Shown here piece by piece: positions 158 to 8,402 of a stretch of DNA of 8,860 nucleotides. Numbering within the stretch: position 1 is the first letter of the stretch; every line of letters begins with the position of its first letter. The position numbers and the translations under genes are program-made. The DNA is taken from the IMG/VR virus record IMGVR_UViG_2698536312_000010; one strand, given 5' to 3'. A model generated the notes under the pieces. The model saw nothing but the letters and a program-made list of their open reading frames with translations, searched no databases and had not been told where the DNA came from. The DNA comes from a virus (lineage: Duplodnaviria; Heunggongvirae; Uroviricota; Caudoviricetes).

Positions 158-411
158 ACAACCAGACAATGACTTTTACCCCTGAACAATTGCGTAAACA
201 CGCGCAGGAAATGCTGCGTCATGCTGAACAACTCGAAAAAACGGGCATAACAAAAGACGCTATCCGTAAAGATATGGTACCCGCGCTTCGGGAACTGATG
301 CAGGCGAAGCATCGCGCACAGAAAGCAGTAGATGAGCTGGTGGACTGTGTGGCAGAGCTGGAAACCAGAGTCGGAAAGTTTGAAAAACTGGTGCAGGAGG
401 TGCTGCGCTGA
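154..411 (+). CDS. Small hypothetical phage protein (85 aa) immediately upstream of rusA
   Basis: ORF in the six-frame track. TTG start at 154 is preceded by GGAG at 142-145 at 8 nt spacing; an internal ATG at 169 has no Shine-Dalgarno. Stop TGA 409-411 overlaps the rusA ATG at 411. Protein is charged and probably helical; no recognisable motif. Confidence 0.55.
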   Translation: MNNQTMTFTPEQLRKHAQEMLRHAEQLEKTGITKDAIRKDMVPALRELMQAKHRAQKAVDELVDCVAELETRVGKFEKLVQEVLR

Positions 412-785
412 TGCGCCATGAGTTTATTTTACCTTATCCGCCGACGGTGAATACTTACTGGCGACGTCGTGACAACACATATTTTGTATCAAAAGCCGGT
501 GAGCGTTATCGCCGGGATGTGGCGCTTATTGTCCGTCAGCAGCGACTGAAATTAAGCCTGTCCGGAAGACTGGCGATAAAGATTATTGCAGAGCCACCGG
601 ATAAGCGCCGTCGTGACCTGGACAATATCCTGAAAGCACCACTGGATGCACTGACACATGCGGGAGTGTTAATGGACGATGAGCAGTTTGATGAAATCAA
701 TATCGTTCGTGGTCAGCCAGTATCTGGTGGACGTCTGGGGGTGAAGATTTACCCCATAATGCATGAAGAGCAGGTCAAAAAATGA
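411..785 (+). CDS. rusA: RusA-family Holliday junction resolvase (crossover junction endodeoxyribonuclease)
   Basis: 124-aa product with the RusA-type RRRDLDN motif and overall resemblance to E. coli prophage RusA as I recall it. Size and position in the nin region just upstream of Q are typical. Stop overlaps the Q start (ATGA at 782-785). Confidence 0.9.
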   Translation: MRHEFILPYPPTVNTYWRRRDNTYFVSKAGERYRRDVALIVRQQRLKLSLSGRLAIKIIAEPPDKRRRDLDNILKAPLDALTHAGVLMDDEQFDEINIVRGQPVSGGRLGVKIYPIMHEEQVKK

Positions 786-1797
786 AACTGGAAGATTTAC
801 CGAAATACTACTCCCCAAAATCCCCTTGCCTGACCGATGCATCGGCCTCAACGTCAAAAGATGCGCTGAGTATCACTGATGTGATGGCCGCGCAGGGCAT
901 GACACAGAATCGGGCTGAGATGGGGTTTTCTGCGTTCCTGGGGAAAATGGGCATCAGTATGAATGACAGGGCGCGGGCAACAGAATTACTGGCAGATTAT
1001 GCACTCAGTCGGTGCGATCGTGTGGCGGCGTTGAGAAAACTTCCGGCAGAAATAAAACCGGTAGTGATGCGCATTATGGCTTCGTACGCTTTTGANNNNA
1101 GAATCGGGCTGAGATGGGGGTTTCTGCGTTCCTTGGGAAAATGGGCATTAGTATGAATGACAGAGAGCGGGCAACAGAATTGCTGACAGAATATGCACTC
1201 AGTCGGTGTGATCGCGTGGCGGCGTTAAGAAAACTCCCGGCAGAAATAAAACCGGCAGTGATGCGTATTATGGCTTCGTATGCGTTTGAAGATTATGCCC
1301 GTAGCGCGGCGAGCAAAAAACAGTGCCCCTGCTGTCACGGAAAAAAATTTATTGAAAGCGAGGTTTTTACAAACAAGATCCAGTATCCGGATGGTAAGCC
1401 GCCGGTATGGGCAAAGTGTACGAAAGGTGTGTATCCGTCTTACTGGGAAGAATGGAAAAAAGTCAGAGAGGTGGTAAAAGTTGCCTGTCCGGAGTGTGGC
1501 GGAAAGGGTGAGGTTTCCACCGCCTGTAAGGATTGCCGTGGGCGTGGTGTCGCCATTCATCGTGAAGAGTCGGTAAAACGTGGTATGCCTGTTATCAGAG
1601 ACTGCCAGCGTTGTGGTGGTCGTGGCTATGAAAGACTACCATCAACGGAGGCATTTAATGCTATATGCGAGGTGACAAACCAGATAACACGCGCGTCATG
1701 GGAAAAAACAGTTAAGAAATTCTATGATGCGCTGGTGACCCGGTTTGATATTGAAGAAGCATGGGCTGAGCGGCAGTTAAAAAAGGTAACTAGGTAA
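782..1797 (+). CDS. Q: Late-gene antiterminator Q-like protein with DnaJ-type zinc-finger repeats; reading frame interrupted by a 4-N scaffold gap and a duplicated segment
   Basis: The 5' part (782-1095) and 3' part (1100-1797) encode the same protein. About 190 bp either side of the Ns (905-1095 and 1100-1290) are diverged copies of each other (roughly 92% identical by eye), which shifts the frame by 194 nt. The C-terminal half has CPCCHG, CPECGGKG, CKDCRGRG and CQRCGGRG motifs. The gene sits directly upstream of a pR'-like promoter. Confidence 0.75.
1096..1099. other. Scaffold gap (4 N) between two diverged copies of the same Q segment
   Basis: Literal nnnn, flanked by near-identical sequence on both sides. 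Confidence 1.
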
Positions 1798-2369: not shown

Positions 2370-3428
2370 ATGCTTAATACTGTAAAAATATCCAGTTGTG
2401 AGTTAATCAACGCCGACTGCCTGGAATTTATCCGGTCGTTACCCGAAAATTCTGTTGACCTGATAGTCACGGACCCGCCGTACTTTAAAGTGAAGCCTGA
2501 GGGCTGGGATAACCAGTGGAAGGGCGACGATGATTACCTGAAGTGGCTGGACCAGTGTCTGGCGCAGTTCTGGCGGGTGCTGAAACCTGCCGGAAGTCTT
2601 TACCTGTTCTGTGGTCATCGCCTGGCATCTGATATCGAAATCATGATGCGTGAACGCTTCAGTGTGCTGAACCATATTATCTGGGCGAAGCCGTCCGGAC
2701 GCTGGAACGGATGCAACAAGGAAAGCCTGCGGGCGTATTTCCCCGCCACAGAGCGCATTCTGTTCGCGGAACATTATCAGGGGCCGTATCGTCCGAAAGA
2801 TGCCGGGTATGCGGCGAAGGGCAGTGCACTGAAACAGCATGTGATGGCCCCGCTGATTTCTTACTTTCGTGATGCGCGAGCTGCCCTGGGGATAACGGCA
2901 AAACAGATTGCAGATGCCACAGGAAAGAAAAACATGGTGTCGCACTGGTTCAGTGCCGGTCAGTGGCAGTTGCCGAATGAAAGCGATTATCTGAAATTAC
3001 AGGCGCTGTTTGCCCGGGTGGCAGAAGAGAAGCATCGGCGTGGTGAACTGGAAAAGCTCCACCACCAGCTGGTGGATACGTATACCTCACTGAACCGGCA
3101 GTATGCGGAGCTGCTGAGTGAATATAAACATCTGCGGCGGTATTTTGGCGTGACGGTGCAGGTGCCGTATACCGATGTGTGGACGCATAAACCGGTGCAG
3201 TTCTATCCCGGGAAACATCCGTGCGAAAAACCGGCAGAAATGCTGCAGCAGATAATCAGCGCTAGCAGTCGTCCGGGTGACCTGATTGCAGATTTTTTCA
3301 TGGGGTTGGGTTCGACAGTGAAAGCGGCACTGGCGCTCGGGCGTCGTGCAATTGGCGTTGAGCTGGAGACTGAACGTTTTGAGCAGACGGTTCGGGAAGT
3401 ACAGGATTTAGTCAGCCAGAACGGATGA
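2370..3428 (+). CDS. Beta-class DNA methyltransferase (N6-adenine or N4-cytosine), orphan
   Basis: 352 aa with DPPY (motif IV) near the N-terminus in VTDPPYF and an FxGxG AdoMet-binding motif (DFFMGLGST) near the C-terminus; this order is diagnostic of beta-class amino-methyltransferases. No restriction-enzyme partner in the window. Confidence 0.9.
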   Translation: MLNTVKISSCELINADCLEFIRSLPENSVDLIVTDPPYFKVKPEGWDNQWKGDDDYLKWLDQCLAQFWRVLKPAGSLYLFCGHRLASDIEIMMRERFSVLNHIIWAKPSGRWNGCNKESLRAYFPATERILFAEHYQGPYRPKDAGYAAKGSALKQHVMAPLISYFRDARAALGITAKQIADATGKKNMVSHWFSAGQWQLPNESDYLKLQALFARVAEEKHRRGELEKLHHQLVDTYTSLNRQYAELLSEYKHLRRYFGVTVQVPYTDVWTHKPVQFYPGKHPCEKPAEMLQQIISASSRPGDLIADFFMGLGSTVKAALALGRRAIGVELETERFEQTVREVQDLVSQNG

Positions 3429-3468: not shown

Positions 3469-3544
3469 GGCCCTTTAGCTCAGTGGTGAGAGCGAGCGAC
3501 TCATAATCGCCAGGTCGCTGGTTCAAATCCAGCAAGGGCCACCA
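3469..3544 (+). tRNA. ileZ: tRNA with CAU anticodon, Ile2 (lysidine) type; encoded 3' CCA present
   Basis: Manual cloverleaf: acceptor GGCCCTT/AAGGGCC, D-stem GCTC/GAGC, anticodon loop CTCATAA (CAT at 3502-3504), T-arm GCTGG-TTCAAAT-CCAGC, discriminator A, CCA at 3542-3544. Close to E. coli tRNA-Ile2 as I recall it. The symbol follows Stx-phage nomenclature and is not verified by search. Confidence 0.88.
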
Positions 3545-3644
3545 TCACAAACCGCCATTAGCTTATCAGGAAGAGCAGACGACACGATAACAGGGTTGTT
3601 GGTGCGGGGGCGGGTCCCCGATGGCGGTCCATTATCGGTATTCA

Positions 3645-3721
3645 GCGTTGTTAGCTCAGCCGGACAGAGCAATTGCCTTCTAAGCAATCGGTCACTGGTT
3701 CGAATCCAGTACAGCGCGCCA
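3645..3721 (+). tRNA. argO: tRNA-Arg (anticodon UCU, reads AGA/AGG); encoded 3' CCA present
   Basis: Manual cloverleaf: acceptor GCGTTGT/ACAGCGC with one G-U pair, D-stem GCTC/GAGC, anticodon stem ATTGC/GCAAT, loop CTTCTAA (TCT at 3679-3681), T-arm ACTGG-TTCGAAT-CCAGT, CCA at 3719-3721. The symbol is a guess from 933W-type naming (argN/argO). Confidence 0.88.
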
Positions 3722-3831
3722 TATTCATTCTTCCAGATTCCTTCCGGCAGAGCCTTATACTGAAATATACCTGGCTCAGGATATTGTTGAAAATATTTTA
3801 TGTTTGTCAAAAATAAAAGTTCTGTTAAGTA

Positions 3832-4185
3832 TTGATTGAGTGTTTGTTATACGGTCTAATGGTTTTTTCAGCATTAAATATTTATCATTCATATGGTGTG
3901 GGTAGAGTGAATATTGATGAGGCGTCGGGGTGTTTCATCCTTAGGCAGCGTATTGATATAGTCAATGCAGCACGAGCAAAGGCCTTCAGCCGTTTGACAG
4001 TTTTGTTCTGTACTCCTGATCGTCTTTCGGGAAGAGACGTTATTATTCTGAATAGTGATGCTATACAGAGGGTTTGCGATGAGTTCATGGTTGCTAATTC
4101 AGAATTATTTGCTCTTGTTCAGGAGTACAACAGAATAGCCAGGACCTGTGGTATGGATGAACTTCGGATTACTCATCTGGGGTAG
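3832..4185 (+). CDS. Hypothetical ORF (117 aa from TTG; 108 aa from first ATG at 3859) immediately after the tRNAs
   Basis: Open frame only; no convincing Shine-Dalgarno for either start and no recognisable motif. An antisense ORF (3885-4088) overlaps it. Position corresponds to where stxA begins in Stx phages, but the product does not resemble StxA. Confidence 0.3.
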   Translation: MIECLLYGLMVFSALNIYHSYGVGRVNIDEASGCFILRQRIDIVNAARAKAFSRLTVLFCTPDRLSGRDVIILNSDAIQRVCDEFMVANSELFALVQEYNRIARTCGMDELRITHLG

Positions 4186-4389
4186 ATACATATCTGGATT
4201 ATCACCTGTTACGGTAAAAAGTGATTGCTTACTGTTTTTGTGAATGGCATTGCAGCAGCCGGATAATGTCAGTGCTGGCTGACGGTGTGCTGGTGGCGGG
4301 TGTGGTGGTTGTTGCTTTCCCGTTGCTGAAAAAGAAAACGCCAGACTGTTAGCCGGGTATCAGTTAGCGGGAGAAATTTTTAAATACTT

Positions 4390-4611
4390 CACAATTCAGG
4401 CGGTTGACTGTTGTCTGGTTTGCGGGGAGTTTGTTAAAAGAAACTGGCATGGTGAATCCCCCTGTGCGGAGGGGCAATCAGCGAGTAGGTATATGGGATA
4501 ATCGCGGATTCAGGTGCTGGTACTGAATTCACCGGGAGGCACCCGGCACCATGCAATGGCACATAGCGCCACTCTCCAGCCCCTCTCCGGAGGGGCTGTT
4601 TATATTGATTT
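4390..4611 (+). repeat. Repeat family copy 1: candidate small-RNA gene with 5' hairpin and intrinsic terminator
   Basis: The stretch from GTTTGTTAAAAG (4429) to the terminator is near-identical to copy 2 and shares conserved blocks with copy 3. 5' hairpin CCCCT-GTGCGG-AGGGG at 4458-4473. Terminator stem AGCCCCTC (4577-4584), loop TCCG, stem GAGGGGCT (4589-4596), then GTTTATATTGATTTT. Confidence 0.8.
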
Positions 4612-4632
4612 TGTCAGATGTGAGTAAACTCC

Positions 4633-4968
4633 TTATGGACTTTGTTGTTTTAGTCCATAAGGACATATTTGCAGAGTGCAACGGTTATTAAAGCATTCAT
4701 TCAATACGTTATCTGTATTTGTAGGGCATTCCTGGCTGTTTTTGATTAAATTCCAGAATGTTTTATTGAATGGTACTACGTTGTAAATGGTTACAGGTAG
4801 CACTTTGTTATTGAGCATGATGCCTGTGTGAGTCAGTGTAAATATACTTTCAGGAGGTAAGAAAGCATCCGATTGATACCAGATTATTAATTTTATTTTA
4901 CTCCATATGACTGAAAAAGATATTCCGCATGATGGCTGGATAACTGTATCAATCACAATCCACTTCAT
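4633..4968 (-). CDS. Hypothetical cysteine-rich protein (111 aa) in AT-rich DNA, opposite strand to the phage late genes
   Basis: Only long ORF in this interval. Good Shine-Dalgarno on the minus strand (AAGGA, 6-nt spacer, ATG at 4968-4966). AT-rich upstream region with a TATACT -10-like hexamer (plus coordinates 5009-5014). C-terminal cluster of four cysteines ([26 protein letters not shown]). A 10-bp perfect stem-loop (4631-4662) spans the stop codon. No family recognised. Confidence 0.45.
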
Positions 4969-5236
4969 TTAGTTTCCTTGTTTATGCCTTGCTGGTGATG
5001 TTCTGAAAAGTATAAATGATATTTTTGAATGTAAACCATAGAGCAGAATTATTTTTCTGATGTTGTTTATTGTTTATTTAAATGCAGGGTGGTTTATATC
5101 TCGTCTTGTAGTTTATCCATGCATATCTGCTTGATAATCAGGTTTTTATTTAAGGTATGGTTTTGTGTTTTTTCTGTATTACATGTCAGGTATTTTAAAG
5201 AATTATTTTTCAGATGGTGGAAAGAACCATGGCATT

Positions 5237-5248
5237 TNNNNNNNNNNN
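5237..5248. other. Scaffold gap (12 N) immediately 5' of repeat copy 2
   Basis: Literal N-run; the sequence after it begins exactly at a conserved repeat block. Confidence 1.
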
Positions 5249-5421
5249 GTTTGTTAAAAGAAACTGGCATGGTGAATCCCCCTGTGCGGAGGGGCAATCA
5301 GCGAGTAGGTATATGGGATAATCGCGGATTCAGGTGCTGGTACTGAATTCACCGGGAGGCACCCGGCATCATGCAATGGCACATAGCGCCACTCTCCAGC
5401 CCTCTCCGGAGGGGCTTTTCT
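5249..5421 (+). repeat. Repeat family copy 2 (5' end hidden by the gap); near-identical to copy 1
   Basis: 5249-5415 matches 4429-4596 with two differences (caccatg to catcatg, and one C missing in the terminator stem). Sequence downstream of the terminator is unrelated to that after copy 1. Confidence 0.8.
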
Positions 5422-5475
5422 GTGCCGGATACATCACAGTTTCTGGAACCTTAGGTACTACAGTATCAGTCAGGG

Positions 5476-5484
5476 TGCTATATT
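5476..5484 (+). promoter_or_regulatory. Candidate extended -10 promoter (TGcTATATT) for a short independent transcript ending at the 5610-5637 terminator
   Basis: TG at 5476-5477 and TATATT at 5479-5484; no clear -35. The terminator lies about 120-150 nt downstream. Confidence 0.35.
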
Positions 5485-5609
5485 TTCAGATGTGATGAAA
5501 GCCTGTCAGCAGGCAGGGCGTATCGGAAATGACCCAGTAGAGAAAACGTTGACTCAGATACCGGTGCTGAGTTACCGGGAAACCGGCATCACATGACCGC
5601 TATCCTTCC

Positions 5610-5637
5610 AGGCCCATCCGCTCCGGTGGGCCTTTTT
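5610..5637 (+). terminator. Intrinsic terminator (GC-rich hairpin plus T5)
   Basis: Stem GGCCCA (5611-5616), loop TCCGCTCCGG, stem TGGGCC (5627-5632), then TTTTT (5633-5637). Confidence 0.5.
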
Positions 5638-5676
5638 ACTGCAGAAAACAGGTTCCCCGTTAAATGCTATGTTGCT

Positions 5677-5908
5677 CACAATTCAGTAAGTTGACAGTTG
5701 CCTGTCAGACTGGGCATTTGTTAAAAAAATTTCGCATGGTGAATCCCCCTGAGCGGAGGGGCGACTGGTGACGGTATAATCTCTGATTATCAAAACGAGA
5801 ATGACGCGGGTTTAGTGGCACCGGGCTGAACTCACCGGGAGGCACCCGGCACCATGTGCATGATGATACAGATACGCGGCTTTAGCCCCTCTCCGGAGGG
5901 GTTTTCTT
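5677..5908 (+). repeat. Repeat family copy 3: diverged copy with the same conserved ends and a different core
   Basis: Shares CACAATTCAG, GTTGAC-GTTG-CTG, TTTGTTAAAA, GCATGGTGAATCCCCCTG-GCGGAGGGGC, TCACCGGGAGGCACCCGGCACCATG and the terminator hairpin (CCCCTC-TCCG-GAGGGG, 5886-5901, then TTTTCTT) with copy 1. The intervening core sequences are unrelated. Confidence 0.75.
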
Positions 5909-5913
5909 GTGGG

Positions 5914-5943
5914 CAAAAAAAGCCCGCGCTGGGAGACGCGGGC
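5914..5943 (-). terminator. Possible minus-strand intrinsic terminator facing the N gap
   Basis: Hairpin GCCCGCG-CTGGGAGA-CGCGGGC (5922-5943) preceded on the plus strand by A7 (5914-5920), which is a U-run on the minus-strand transcript. Confidence 0.35.
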
Positions 5944-5973
5944 GGCAAGGAATAAACAATAAAACGTGAAGTA

Positions 5974-6164
5974 NNNNNNNNNNNNNNNNNNNNNNNNNNN
6001 NNNNNNNNNNNNNNNNNNNNNNNNNNNNNNNNNNNNNNNNNNNNNNNNNNNNNNNNNNNNNNNNNNNNNNNNNNNNNNNNNNNNNNNNNNNNNNNNNNNN
6101 NNNNNNNNNNNNNNNNNNNNNNNNNNNNNNNNNNNNNNNNNNNNNNNNNNNNNNNNNNNNNNNN
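5974..6164. other. Scaffold gap (191 N) immediately upstream of the nanS-p start
   Basis: Literal N-run. Six-frame ORFs crossing it are artefacts. Confidence 1.
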
Positions 6165-6182
6165 TCCCGGCCGGGAGGATTC

Positions 6183-8036
6183 ATGGCATTTAAACACTAT
6201 GACGTGGTCAGGGCGGCATCGCCGTCAGACCTTGCGAAACGACTGACACAAAAACTGAAGGAGGGCTGGCAGCCGTTTGGTAGTCCGGTGGCCATAACCC
6301 CTTATACCCTGATGCAGGCGATTGCAGCAGAAGGTGATGTGGTCGTCAGTGGTGCAACTGAGCCGGAGTGGTACTACGTCATCGTACTGGCCGGGCAATC
6401 CAATGCCATGGCTTACGGTGAAGGTCTTCCGCTTCCGGATTCATACGATGCGCCCCATCCGCGCATTAAGCAACTGGCCCGTCGTAACACAGTGACTCCC
6501 GGTGGTGAAGTATGCGTATTTAACGACATCATTCCTGCTGACCATTGTCTGCATGATGTTCAGGATATGAGTACGATTAACCATCCCCGGGCTGACCTGA
6601 GCAAAGGGCAGTACGGCTGTGTCGGACAGGGCTTACATATTGCCAAAAAACTGCTTCCGTATATCCCTAATAATGCGGGGATCCTGCTGGTACCATGCTG
6701 TCGTGGTGGTTCGGCATTCACCCAGGGCACGGAGGGGACATTCAGCGAGTCCACGGGGGCCAGTCAGGATTCGGCTCGCTGGGGAGTGGGTAAGCCGTTA
6801 TATCAGGATCTGCTTTTCCGCACGAAGGCAGCATTGCAGAAAAACCCGAAAAACGTTTTGCTGGCGATATGCTGGATGCAGGGGGAATTCGATATGACGA
6901 ATGCCAGTTACGCCCAGCAGCCAGCAGCATTTCTTGCAATGGTACAGCAGTTCCGTGCTGACCTTGCCGGGCTGGCGGCGCAGTGTCACGGTGGAAGTCC
7001 GGCATCAGTCCCCTGGATTTGTGGCGACACGACATACGCGTGGAAACAAGAACACGGTACGCAATATGAAGTGGTATATGGTGCATATAAAGGTAAAGAA
7101 TCCCAGCAGATTTATTTTGTTCCCTTTATGACCGATGGTAGCGGAGTTAATACACCGACAAACAACCCGTCAGAAGATCCTGATATTGCCGGGTCTGGTT
7201 ATTACGGTTCGGCATCCCGAACGAACAAAAACTGGGTATCATCAAATCGCCCGACGCATTTCAGCTCATGGGCGCGTCGTGGCATTATTCCCGATCGTAT
7301 GGCAACTGCTATTCTGAACGTAGCCGGTCGCACCTTAGCCTTCATTAGTGGTAAGGCACCGGAAATCAAACCCTCGCCCGGCGGCGACACGCCATCGGGG
7401 CCGTCTGAAGATGCATCCATACGCACAATCTCCCTGTTGCCGACAGCCGGAGACGCTGCTGCGCAGGGCTGGAGCATTAAGAATGGCGGAGTTCAGTTGT
7501 CAGATGGTGTATTTAAGATCACCAAGCAGAGCAATAAAGCCTGGTCCCTGACGCGCCCGGTGGATGACGCAGTCTCCCTGCTGACACGGGGTGGCAGACT
7601 GAGCTGTAAGTTTCGACTGTCAGGCGCACTGACCACCAACCAGTTCGGTCTGGGAATTTATCTGTATACCGATGTAGCGTTACCTGACGTCGTGGCGATG
7701 ACCGGGACTGGTAACCCGTTCCTGATGTCGTTCTTCACCCAGACCACAGACGGCAAACTGAATCTGATGCATCACAAGAAAGCAGGAAACACAAAGTTGG
7801 GCGAGTTCGGGAATTACAGTAACGACTGGCTGACGCTGGAGCTGGTGTTCACCGCCGGCAGTGCCACGGTTACTCCGAAACTGAATGGAGTGGCTGGCCC
7901 GGCATTCCAGGTCATAAAAGACAGTCTGACACTGGGGCTGAATGCGCTGACGCTGACGGATATTACCAAAAATGCAGCGTATGGCGTTGAGATAGAAAGT
8001 CTGGTGCTGGAGATAAATGCACCGGCATCATCATAA
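6183..8036 (+). CDS. nanS-p: Prophage sialate O-acetylesterase, NanS-p type (DUF1737 N-terminus plus SASA/SGNH esterase domain)
   Basis: 617 aa. The N-terminus MAFKHYDVVRAASPSDLAKRLTQKLKEGWQPFGSP matches the DUF1737-type start and VLAGQSNAMAYG carries the GQSN catalytic-serine motif of SASA esterases, both from memory. GGGAGGA sits upstream of the ATG. Position between the toxin-cargo slot and holin S is the canonical one in 933W-like phages. In-frame upstream sequence is open into the gap, so the true start could lie within it. Confidence 0.88.
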   Translation: MAFKHYDVVRAASPSDLAKRLTQKLKEGWQPFGSPVAITPYTLMQAIAAEGDVVVSGATEPEWYYVIVLAGQSNAMAYGEGLPLPDSYDAPHPRIKQLARRNTVTPGGEVCVFNDIIPADHCLHDVQDMSTINHPRADLSKGQYGCVGQGLHIAKKLLPYIPNNAGILLVPCCRGGSAFTQGTEGTFSESTGASQDSARWGVGKPLYQDLLFRTKAALQKNPKNVLLAICWMQGEFDMTNASYAQQPAAFLAMVQQFRADLAGLAAQCHGGSPASVPWICGDTTYAWKQEHGTQYEVVYGAYKGKESQQIYFVPFMTDGSGVNTPTNNPSEDPDIAGSGYYGSASRTNKNWVSSNRPTHFSSWARRGIIPDRMATAILNVAGRTLAFISGKAPEIKPSPGGDTPSGPSEDASIRTISLLPTAGDAAAQGWSIKNGGVQLSDGVFKITKQSNKAWSLTRPVDDAVSLLTRGGRLSCKFRLSGALTTNQFGLGIYLYTDVALPDVVAMTGTGNPFLMSFFTQTTDGKLNLMHHKKAGNTKLGEFGNYSNDWLTLELVFTAGSATVTPKLNGVAGPAFQVIKDSLTLGLNALTLTDITKNAAYGVEIESLVLEINAPASS

Positions 8037-8121
8037 AAAGTGAGCCAGCCAAATGGAAGGTATCGTTAAACTCACCGGTAGTGTCAGTGGGTCGTCTGAG
8101 ATGCCTGCATGAGTTATCAGA

Positions 8122-8151
8122 GCCATCAGTACTTAACTGGTGGCTTTTTTT
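8122..8151 (+). terminator. Intrinsic terminator between nanS-p and the holin gene
   Basis: Stem GCCATCAG (8122-8129), loop TACTTAA, stem CTGGTGGC (8137-8144) with one G-U pair, then T7 (8145-8151). Confidence 0.5.
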
Positions 8152-8186
8152 ATTGTTGTCAGCTTCCGGATAACGGGAGACGGGGT

Positions 8187-8402
8187 ATGTACCAGATGGA
8201 AAAAATCACAACAGGTGTGTCATACACCACGTCAGCGGTGGGAACGGGCTACTGGTTCCTGCAGTTGCTGGACAGGGTTTCCCCGTCTCAGTGGGCGGCA
8301 ATAGGCGTGCTGGGGAGTCTGCTGTTTGGGCTGCTGACATATCTGACTAACCTGTATTTCAAAATCAGAGAGGACCGTCGTAAGGCTGCACGGGGAGAGT
8401 AA
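8187..8402 (+). CDS. S: Class II holin (pinholin), phage 21 S21-like, with dual-start motif
   Basis: Product [71 protein letters not shown] resembles S21 as I recall it. Two Met codons (8187 and 8196) give the Met1/Met4 antiholin/holin arrangement. GGGAGA lies 6 nt upstream. The six-frame ORF starting at 8109 is an upstream extension that runs through the terminator. Confidence 0.85.

Follow-up and report, generated by a model that had tools for sequence, protein, structure and literature searches.

The minus-strand ORF in the late region of a lambdoid prophage is iraL, an already characterized RssB anti-adaptor gene

The minus-strand open reading frame (ORF) at 4633-4968 of the analysed stretch of viral DNA (8,860 nt, hereafter the window) is almost certainly iraL, a prophage-borne gene that has already been characterized. 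The finding is real yet ordinary, the gene being known. IraL binds RssB and stabilizes RpoS in exponential phase (Hryckowian et al. 2014, PMC4045071). Gene identity, promoter, prophage context and fold could all be established on the window itself; for RssB binding and RpoS stabilization we rely on the literature, where the identical protein was studied in CFT073 and Shigella sonnei. Coordinates are collected in Table 1.

Results

Identity of the minus-strand ORF

Compared with iraL of uropathogenic E. coli CFT073 (WP_000871291.1, c1429; L004:18465-18800), the ORF shows 0 differences over 336 nt and the two proteins are identical. The similarity extends to the neighborhood: positions 3700-5237 are 99.3% identical to the CFT073 potB prophage, with which they are colinear, and 99.7% identical to the corresponding DNA of E. 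coli 042. We delimited iraL as Hryckowian et al. 2014 did (PMC4045071), that is by at least 95% nucleotide identity across 100% of the CFT073 iraL coding region, by a promoter and upstream region that carries the mapped start and has at least 96% identity to that of CFT073, and by location in a horizontally acquired lambdoid prophage of the potB-island type instead of the iraM locus adjacent to e14. The window possesses each of these features, and nothing that we found contradicts the identification.

Among protein family models, NCBIfam NF007393 ("anti-adapter protein IraM"), the model of the IraM/IraL/RssC anti-adaptors, recognizes the window protein with 162 bits against a cut-off of 121, over residues 1-110 of 111. 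In current Pfam-A, hmmscan left it unmatched at E<=0.01 and even at E 10, PmrD (PF11183) included, and K-12 IraM and the O157 variant were likewise unmatched at E 10. Because Pfam is empty here, the identification rests on NCBIfam, PDB and direct DNA identity. Precomputed tags, unlike the direct hmmscan, give PF11183 for every homologue. The PHROG match of the protein is phrog_4407, a family without assigned function.

The gene lies in an AT-rich island (4620-5236), where the sequence-only reading had noticed it as the only long ORF; it is the longest one there. GC content is 0.327 in the island and 0.345 in the ORF, against 0.493 in the whole window. When the island was shuffled by mononucleotides, an ORF of at least 111 aa appeared in 20 of 5000 shuffles (0.4%), the mean longest ORF being 51 aa. 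For iraL, the Nei-Gojobori dN/dS ratio was calculated against two diverged alleles, the O157 variant (0.119) and K-12 iraM (0.155). The frame is under strong purifying selection.

Of 5426 complete E. coli genomes, 1446 (~27%) carry the island by megablast, and in them an annotated anti-adapter protein adjoins a DUF1737/SASA esterase. A more sensitive DNA search separated three classes: the present allele (at least 90%), the O157:H7 allele (~78%) and chromosomal iraM (~70%).

Table 1. Features of the window, in order of position (nt)
Feature	Position	Strand	Basis or remark
RusA	411-785		window gene order
Antiterminator Q	1114-1797		window gene order
N6/N4 DNA methyltransferase	2370-3428		window gene order
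tRNA-Met + tRNA-Arg	3469-3721		window gene order
ORF of unknown function, 117 aa	3832-4185	plus	phrog_2873, E 3.8e-70
DUF3927 peptide	4221-4352		window gene order
STnc100-family sRNA element, copy 1	4418-4607	plus	Rfam RF02076, 132 bits vs gathering score 47
Intrinsic terminator of STnc100 copy 1	4577-4598	plus	terminator prediction
Perfect hairpin spanning stop codon, 12 bp, 10-nt loop	4630-4663	minus	arms 4630-4641 and 4652-4663
iraL coding sequence, 111 aa + stop, RssB anti-adaptor IraL	4633-4968	minus	ATG start; ORF list
C-terminal tail, codons 79-111, C81-P-x9-C92-x4-C97-x4-C102-P-Y-G + IraL-type 4-residue extension (QQSP)	4636-4734	minus	alignments
PmrD-like beta-barrel + helix, RssB-binding domain, codons 1-78	4735-4968	minus	phmmer, AF2 model, Foldseek
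5' UTR, 33 nt; transcription start 5001	4969-5001	minus	published CFT073 5'-RACE end mapped onto window
Shine-Dalgarno AAGGA	4975-4979	minus	6 nt ahead of ATG
-10 element TATACT, sigma-70 iraL promoter	5009-5014	minus	7 nt upstream of mapped start
AT-rich iraL upstream regulatory region	5015-5237	minus	ends at start of truncated esterase gene (ATGGCATTT, 5229-5237, plus strand)
STnc100 copy 2	5238-5427		98% identical to copy 1
STnc100 copy 3	5705-5914		Stx2c-phage type, 86% identical
NanS-p-type SASA esterase	6183-8036		window gene order
P21-type holin	8109-8402		window gene order
DUF1327 protein	after holin		window gene order

Promoter and translation signals

The start site was taken from published mapping and not from a consensus scan. 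The 5'-RACE end of CFT073 iraL mRNA is ACATCACCAGCAAGGCATAAACAAGGAAACCA (PMC4045071). Its first 30 nt are exactly window positions 5001-4972, and 31 of 32 nt agree overall, the mismatch being the SNP at 4971. A RACE end at 5001 falls 7 nt downstream of TATACT, so this hexamer, previously proposed from the letters as a -10-like element, is confirmed as the -10 of a sigma-70 promoter. A generic sigma-70 consensus scan missed the promoter because its -35 is weak. The predicted ribosome-binding site is also in place, at 4979-4975.

From the ATG up to 5237 the window and CFT073 differ at four positions (4971, 5002, 5159 and 5216). Two of them adjoin signals, 5002 being promoter position -1 and 4971 lying in the spacer between Shine-Dalgarno sequence and ATG; both are common to E. 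coli 042. Within 5015-5237 the differences are only those at 5159 and 5216. The upstream region has been reported as at least 96% conserved across all iraL-carrying genomes (PMC4045071).

The 3' end of iraL and its convergent neighbor

A stem-loop was foreseen across the stop codon of iraL. It is present, with a perfect stem of 12 bp where 10 bp had been read; within it, CCTTATGGAC (4662-4653) is paired with GTCCATAAGG (4640-4631), and the TAA stop codon lies inside the 3' arm. The local fold has -17.5 kcal/mol, and among hairpin-type repeats of the window this one belongs to the two longest. A perfect inverted repeat of equal length, 12 bp, occupies 2247-2277 (GGCTGGTGGGTG / CACCCACCAGCC, 7-nt loop) just upstream of the methyltransferase gene.

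We considered two roles for the iraL hairpin and rejected both. As an intrinsic (Rho-independent) terminator it lacks a U-tract, the sequence after the stem being GAGUUUACUCAC, and its stem is not conserved; no terminator-like site was predicted on the minus strand within 4350-5450. As a conserved RNA element it is contradicted by related alleles. Arm changes are uncompensated in the 89% (L008) and 76% (L005) alleles, whose local folds reach -4.8 and -7.5 kcal/mol, respectively, and the 3' arm is absent altogether from the O157 variant (75%) and from K-12 iraM. We regard the hairpin as an allele-specific feature of iraL and of uncertain significance; at most, it may stabilize the 3' end of the mRNA.

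Beyond the stop codon, iraL faces the terminator of STnc100 copy 1, just as the sequence-only reading described, and 25 nt separate the 3' end of the gene (4633) from the 3' end of the STnc100 match (4607). This arrangement invites the proposal that convergent transcription or antisense pairing with STnc100 adds a significant layer of control, either by iraL read-through antisense to STnc100 or by collision of polymerases. The short distance agrees with it, as do the missing intrinsic terminator prediction on the iraL strand and the persistence of the convergent pair in 6 of 6 loci examined (window, CFT073, 042, the O157 Stx2c phage, L005 and L008), which include loci with protein identity of 75-76%. 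Furthermore, sRNAs in convergent pairs were described by Tree et al. 2014 for the same moron site. On the other side, the covariance models of AsxR (RF02703) and AgvB (RF02702) gave no match at E<=1 in window positions 4380-5260 or in L003 positions 5750-6650, and we therefore reject an anti-sRNA of the AsxR/AgvB type at the 3' end of iraL. The conserved linkage could merely reflect insertion of a moron beside a pre-existing late-region element, and K-12 iraM has no STnc100 partner by blastn. Altogether, we regard a significant control layer of this sort as unlikely.

In a 2026 preprint STnc100 is presented as a prophage sRNA with a relationship to PasD, and iraL goes unmentioned there. Equating STnc100 with StxS, the RpoS-activating pR' transcript, is not supported when judged by position: STnc100 of the Stx2c phage is downstream of stxB and StxS is made Q-proximally. 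The STnc100 partner could, however tentatively, couple iraL expression to the read-out of the late promoter. We weighed this coupling jointly with the metal or redox module proposed below for the cysteine-rich tail, and the joint reading seems to us possible, if rather doubtful.

Fold and RssB-contact residues

With phmmer, the window protein matches PDB 8TWD_A (IraM residues 1-78) at E 9e-32. An AlphaFold2 model of IraL was built from 16 homologues. It has a block pLDDT of 76-93 over residues 1-78, with strands in 2-66 and a helix in 69-77, and falls below 50 over residues 81-111. The sequence-only reading had proposed that a signal peptide is absent; in the model, residues 2-11 form the first strand of the barrel. 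Foldseek superimposes the model on 8TWD_A, the IraM of the RssB complex (78 columns, TM 0.90, rmsd 1.3 A), and the next-best matches are three PmrD structures, 4HN7 first. The predicted domain is thus an antiparallel beta-barrel of the PmrD type with a C-terminal helix, as is the published fold of IraM (Brugger et al. 2023, PMC10844676).

Fourteen IraM residues contact RssB, in clusters I-III (PMC10844676). When IraL is aligned to IraM, 10 of the 14 are identical (I4, I6, W22, K26, I42, C14, F18, W30, I61, Y62) and the remaining four are conservative replacements (T13S, L75I, H63N, I64V), so the contact clusters of IraM are represented in IraL.

IraL, IraM and other relatives

Both RefSeq and NCBIfam name the protein "anti-adapter protein IraM", and it shares 62% of its residues and the fold with K-12 IraM (YcgW/ElbA; PDB 8TWD), together with 10 of 14 contacts and the four-cysteine tail motif. 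One might therefore take the ORF for an ordinary IraM orthologue, the PhoP-induced anti-adaptor of Mg2+ starvation in K-12, which merely happens to sit in a prophage. The DNA speaks against it. An orthologue of IraM proper would be expected to match K-12 iraM at 95% or more of its nucleotides and to share the PhoP-responsive promoter region; the identity that we found is 70.6%, it is confined to the coding sequence (4649-4970), the promoter and 3' flank are non-homologous, and the genomic context differs, K-12 iraM being located beside e14. With homology limited to the coding sequence, unrelated flanks and another locus, the gene is not the IraM orthologue induced by Mg2+ starvation, despite its RefSeq name.

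Published work points the same way. There, iraL is kept apart from iraM as a group of its own without overlap, and the two differ in RssB-domain binding and in expression conditions (PMC4045071); the same authors give 58.9% protein and 67% nucleotide identity between CFT073 iraL and K-12 iraM, and the potB island as the location of the former. In CFT073, expression from the 5001 start is already reported to be constitutive in log phase and independent of PhoP. Induction of IraM follows Mg2+ starvation, whereas IraL is active in log phase without stress (PMC10844676, PMC4045071); two-hybrid assays detected binding of IraM to both domains of RssB and of IraL only to the N-terminal one; and IraL has four extra C-terminal residues. 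We consider the IraM reading very improbable and retain the identification as iraL.

The window and CFT073 share, besides the coding sequence, the -10 element, the Shine-Dalgarno sequence and the 5' UTR (31 of 32 nt of the RACE sequence), a flanking block made of tRNA, DUF3927, STnc100, iraL and the esterase start. They differ in the two SNPs next to signals (5002, 4971), in the Q gene, which is another one in the window, and in the DNA methyltransferase gene, which the window has in addition. In the CFT073 prophage the esterase is truncated; the window has a full-length esterase, separated from iraL by additional STnc100 copies.

PmrD (4HN7, 2JSO, 2RQX) is a more distant relative. It is likewise a small beta-barrel (TM 0.69-0.73 on its structures) and, like IraM, binds the receiver domain of a response regulator (PMC10844676). 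It has 14-21% identity, however, and its target is PmrA, not RssB; at ~85 residues, it has no counterpart of the 30-residue four-cysteine tail.

Diverged iraL-like alleles were seen at L003:6001-6324, in an O157:H7 Stx2c prophage, and at positions 3001-3336 of L005-L007, behind the gene of the Shiga toxin B subunit and upstream of a NanS-p esterase. Alleles of this kind in Stx2 phages (WP_001303568.1, O157:H7 strain 7.1_Anguil; P0005) have 75-76% protein identity to the window protein and occupy the same slot between late-region cargo and esterase, with STnc100 convergent. In contrast to the window gene, they follow stxB directly and are without the 12-bp hairpin. The 2014 IraL paper recognized only the two non-overlapping groups, iraL and iraM, and described iraL as under-represented in EHEC/STEC (PMC4045071). 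The Stx-phage alleles appear to be uncharacterized in the literature that we found.

The cysteine-rich tail

The four-cysteine cluster noticed at the C-terminus is real: it consists of C81, C92, C97 and C102, and a fifth cysteine, C14, is N-terminal. All of 18 close homologues retain the four tail cysteines; C14 varies among them. When 1.84 billion cluster representatives were searched with a profile, 93 matched, and the window protein was aligned with 46 homologues down to 20% identity. In these 47 sequences conservation reaches 100% at C81 and C97 and 97% at C92 and C102, and the best-conserved positions of the protein are W72 and the four tail cysteines.

In the structural work on IraM, residues 79-107 were removed as proteolytically unstable and "less conserved", and neither cysteine nor zinc was mentioned (PMC10844676). 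Our literature search found no paper linking the IraM/IraL family to metal binding. No recognizable zinc finger emerged from the tail: a tail-only profile searched against PDB gave a best, non-significant match at E 1.5 to a CCCH finger, and AF2 pLDDT of the tail is below 50. Its conserved pattern may hint at a structural metal or redox site. We propose, as the second half of the tentative joint reading given above, that the motif C-P-x9-C-x4/5-C-x4-C-P-Y-G could form a zinc-binding or redox-sensitive module that controls stability or activity of the anti-adaptor.

Prophage context

The gene order (Table 1) is that of the late-regulatory region of a lambdoid prophage, and the CFT073 counterpart is a complete lambdoid prophage. 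The ORF at 3832-4185 lies in another AT-rich stretch (GC 0.37-0.43); its DNA is conserved in CFT073 and 042, and RefSeq annotates no gene for it. This ORF may be another unannotated moron.

Right of the iraL upstream region, positions 5229-6182 contain in order a 9-nt esterase start (ATGGCATTT), an 11-nt N-run, STnc100 copy 2, a 277-nt spacer, copy 3, a 191-nt N-run and the full esterase. No complete E. coli genome in our collection reproduces this layout, and the joined BLAST pieces are not colinear. Similarly, the N-terminal part of Q is present twice in slightly different form (ORFs 782-1156 and 1114-1797), on both sides of a 4-nt N-run at 1096-1099, which is thus flanked by repeated sequence as is the N-run at 5238. 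The repeats beside N-runs, STnc100 and Q alike, may be real duplications or assembly joins; iraL is untouched by either.

Discussion

From its orientation and its own signals, the ORF had been supposed to be a moron expressed in the lysogen, perhaps of the immunity or exclusion class. The first part holds for the identical CFT073 gene, which has a mapped start and is detected by RNA-seq; homologues with a conserved frame exist, minus-strand transcription of CFT073 iraL has been published, and dN/dS across relatives stays at 0.12-0.16. The proposed class does not hold, since the product is an RssB anti-adaptor, a regulator of RpoS stability in the host. That the gene would instead serve the phage through superinfection immunity, exclusion or defence is suggested by position, opposite orientation and AT-rich composition typical of morons and by a PHROG family (phrog_4407) without assigned function, but the identical protein has a demonstrated host target in RssB (PMC4045071) and the literature searched reports no phage-resistance phenotype, which leaves this explanation with hardly any probability.

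Experimental knowledge of IraL comes from other strains. When iraL is deleted, CFT073 and Shigella sonnei both have less RpoS in log phase, and in CFT073 the half-life of RpoS drops by half, from ~5 to ~2.5 min (PMC4045071). [quoted passage not shown] The mRNA is up by 1.6 log2 at 37 C, and a fur mutant of CFT073 has higher IraL levels.

The most probable course of events, by a wide margin, is as follows. The iraL gene is a moron of the lambdoid late region, with the Q/tRNA block on one side and the NanS-p-type esterase and lysis genes on the other. A sigma-70 promoter of its own (-10 TATACT, start 5001) drives transcription to the left, opposite to the late operon, and with such a promoter the lysogen makes IraL while it grows normally. 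The PmrD-like beta-barrel at the N-terminus (residues 1-78) then binds RssB, an adaptor of the response-regulator type, and the bound RssB is stopped from handing RpoS (sigma-S) to the ClpXP protease. Longer-lived RpoS accumulates in exponential phase, and the general stress response of the host is armed in advance. We infer that RpoS is protected in the same way in the strain from which the window derives.

Taken together, what looked like a cysteine-rich orphan ORF is the published regulator iraL, and the lead is mostly closed; a sequence-only reader can correctly pick a lysogen-expressed moron and its -10 element. In growing cells the gene increases RpoS, and uropathogenic E. coli and Shigella are enriched for it; its association with some pathotypes is statistical (PMC4045071). 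Two points keep a modest residual value. One is the presence of iraL-like alleles in Stx2 phages directly behind Shiga toxin genes, always facing STnc100. The other is the set of near-invariant tail cysteines, unstudied in this family. If the tail is indeed a metal or redox module, it would link RpoS stabilization to the metal or oxidative status of the cell.
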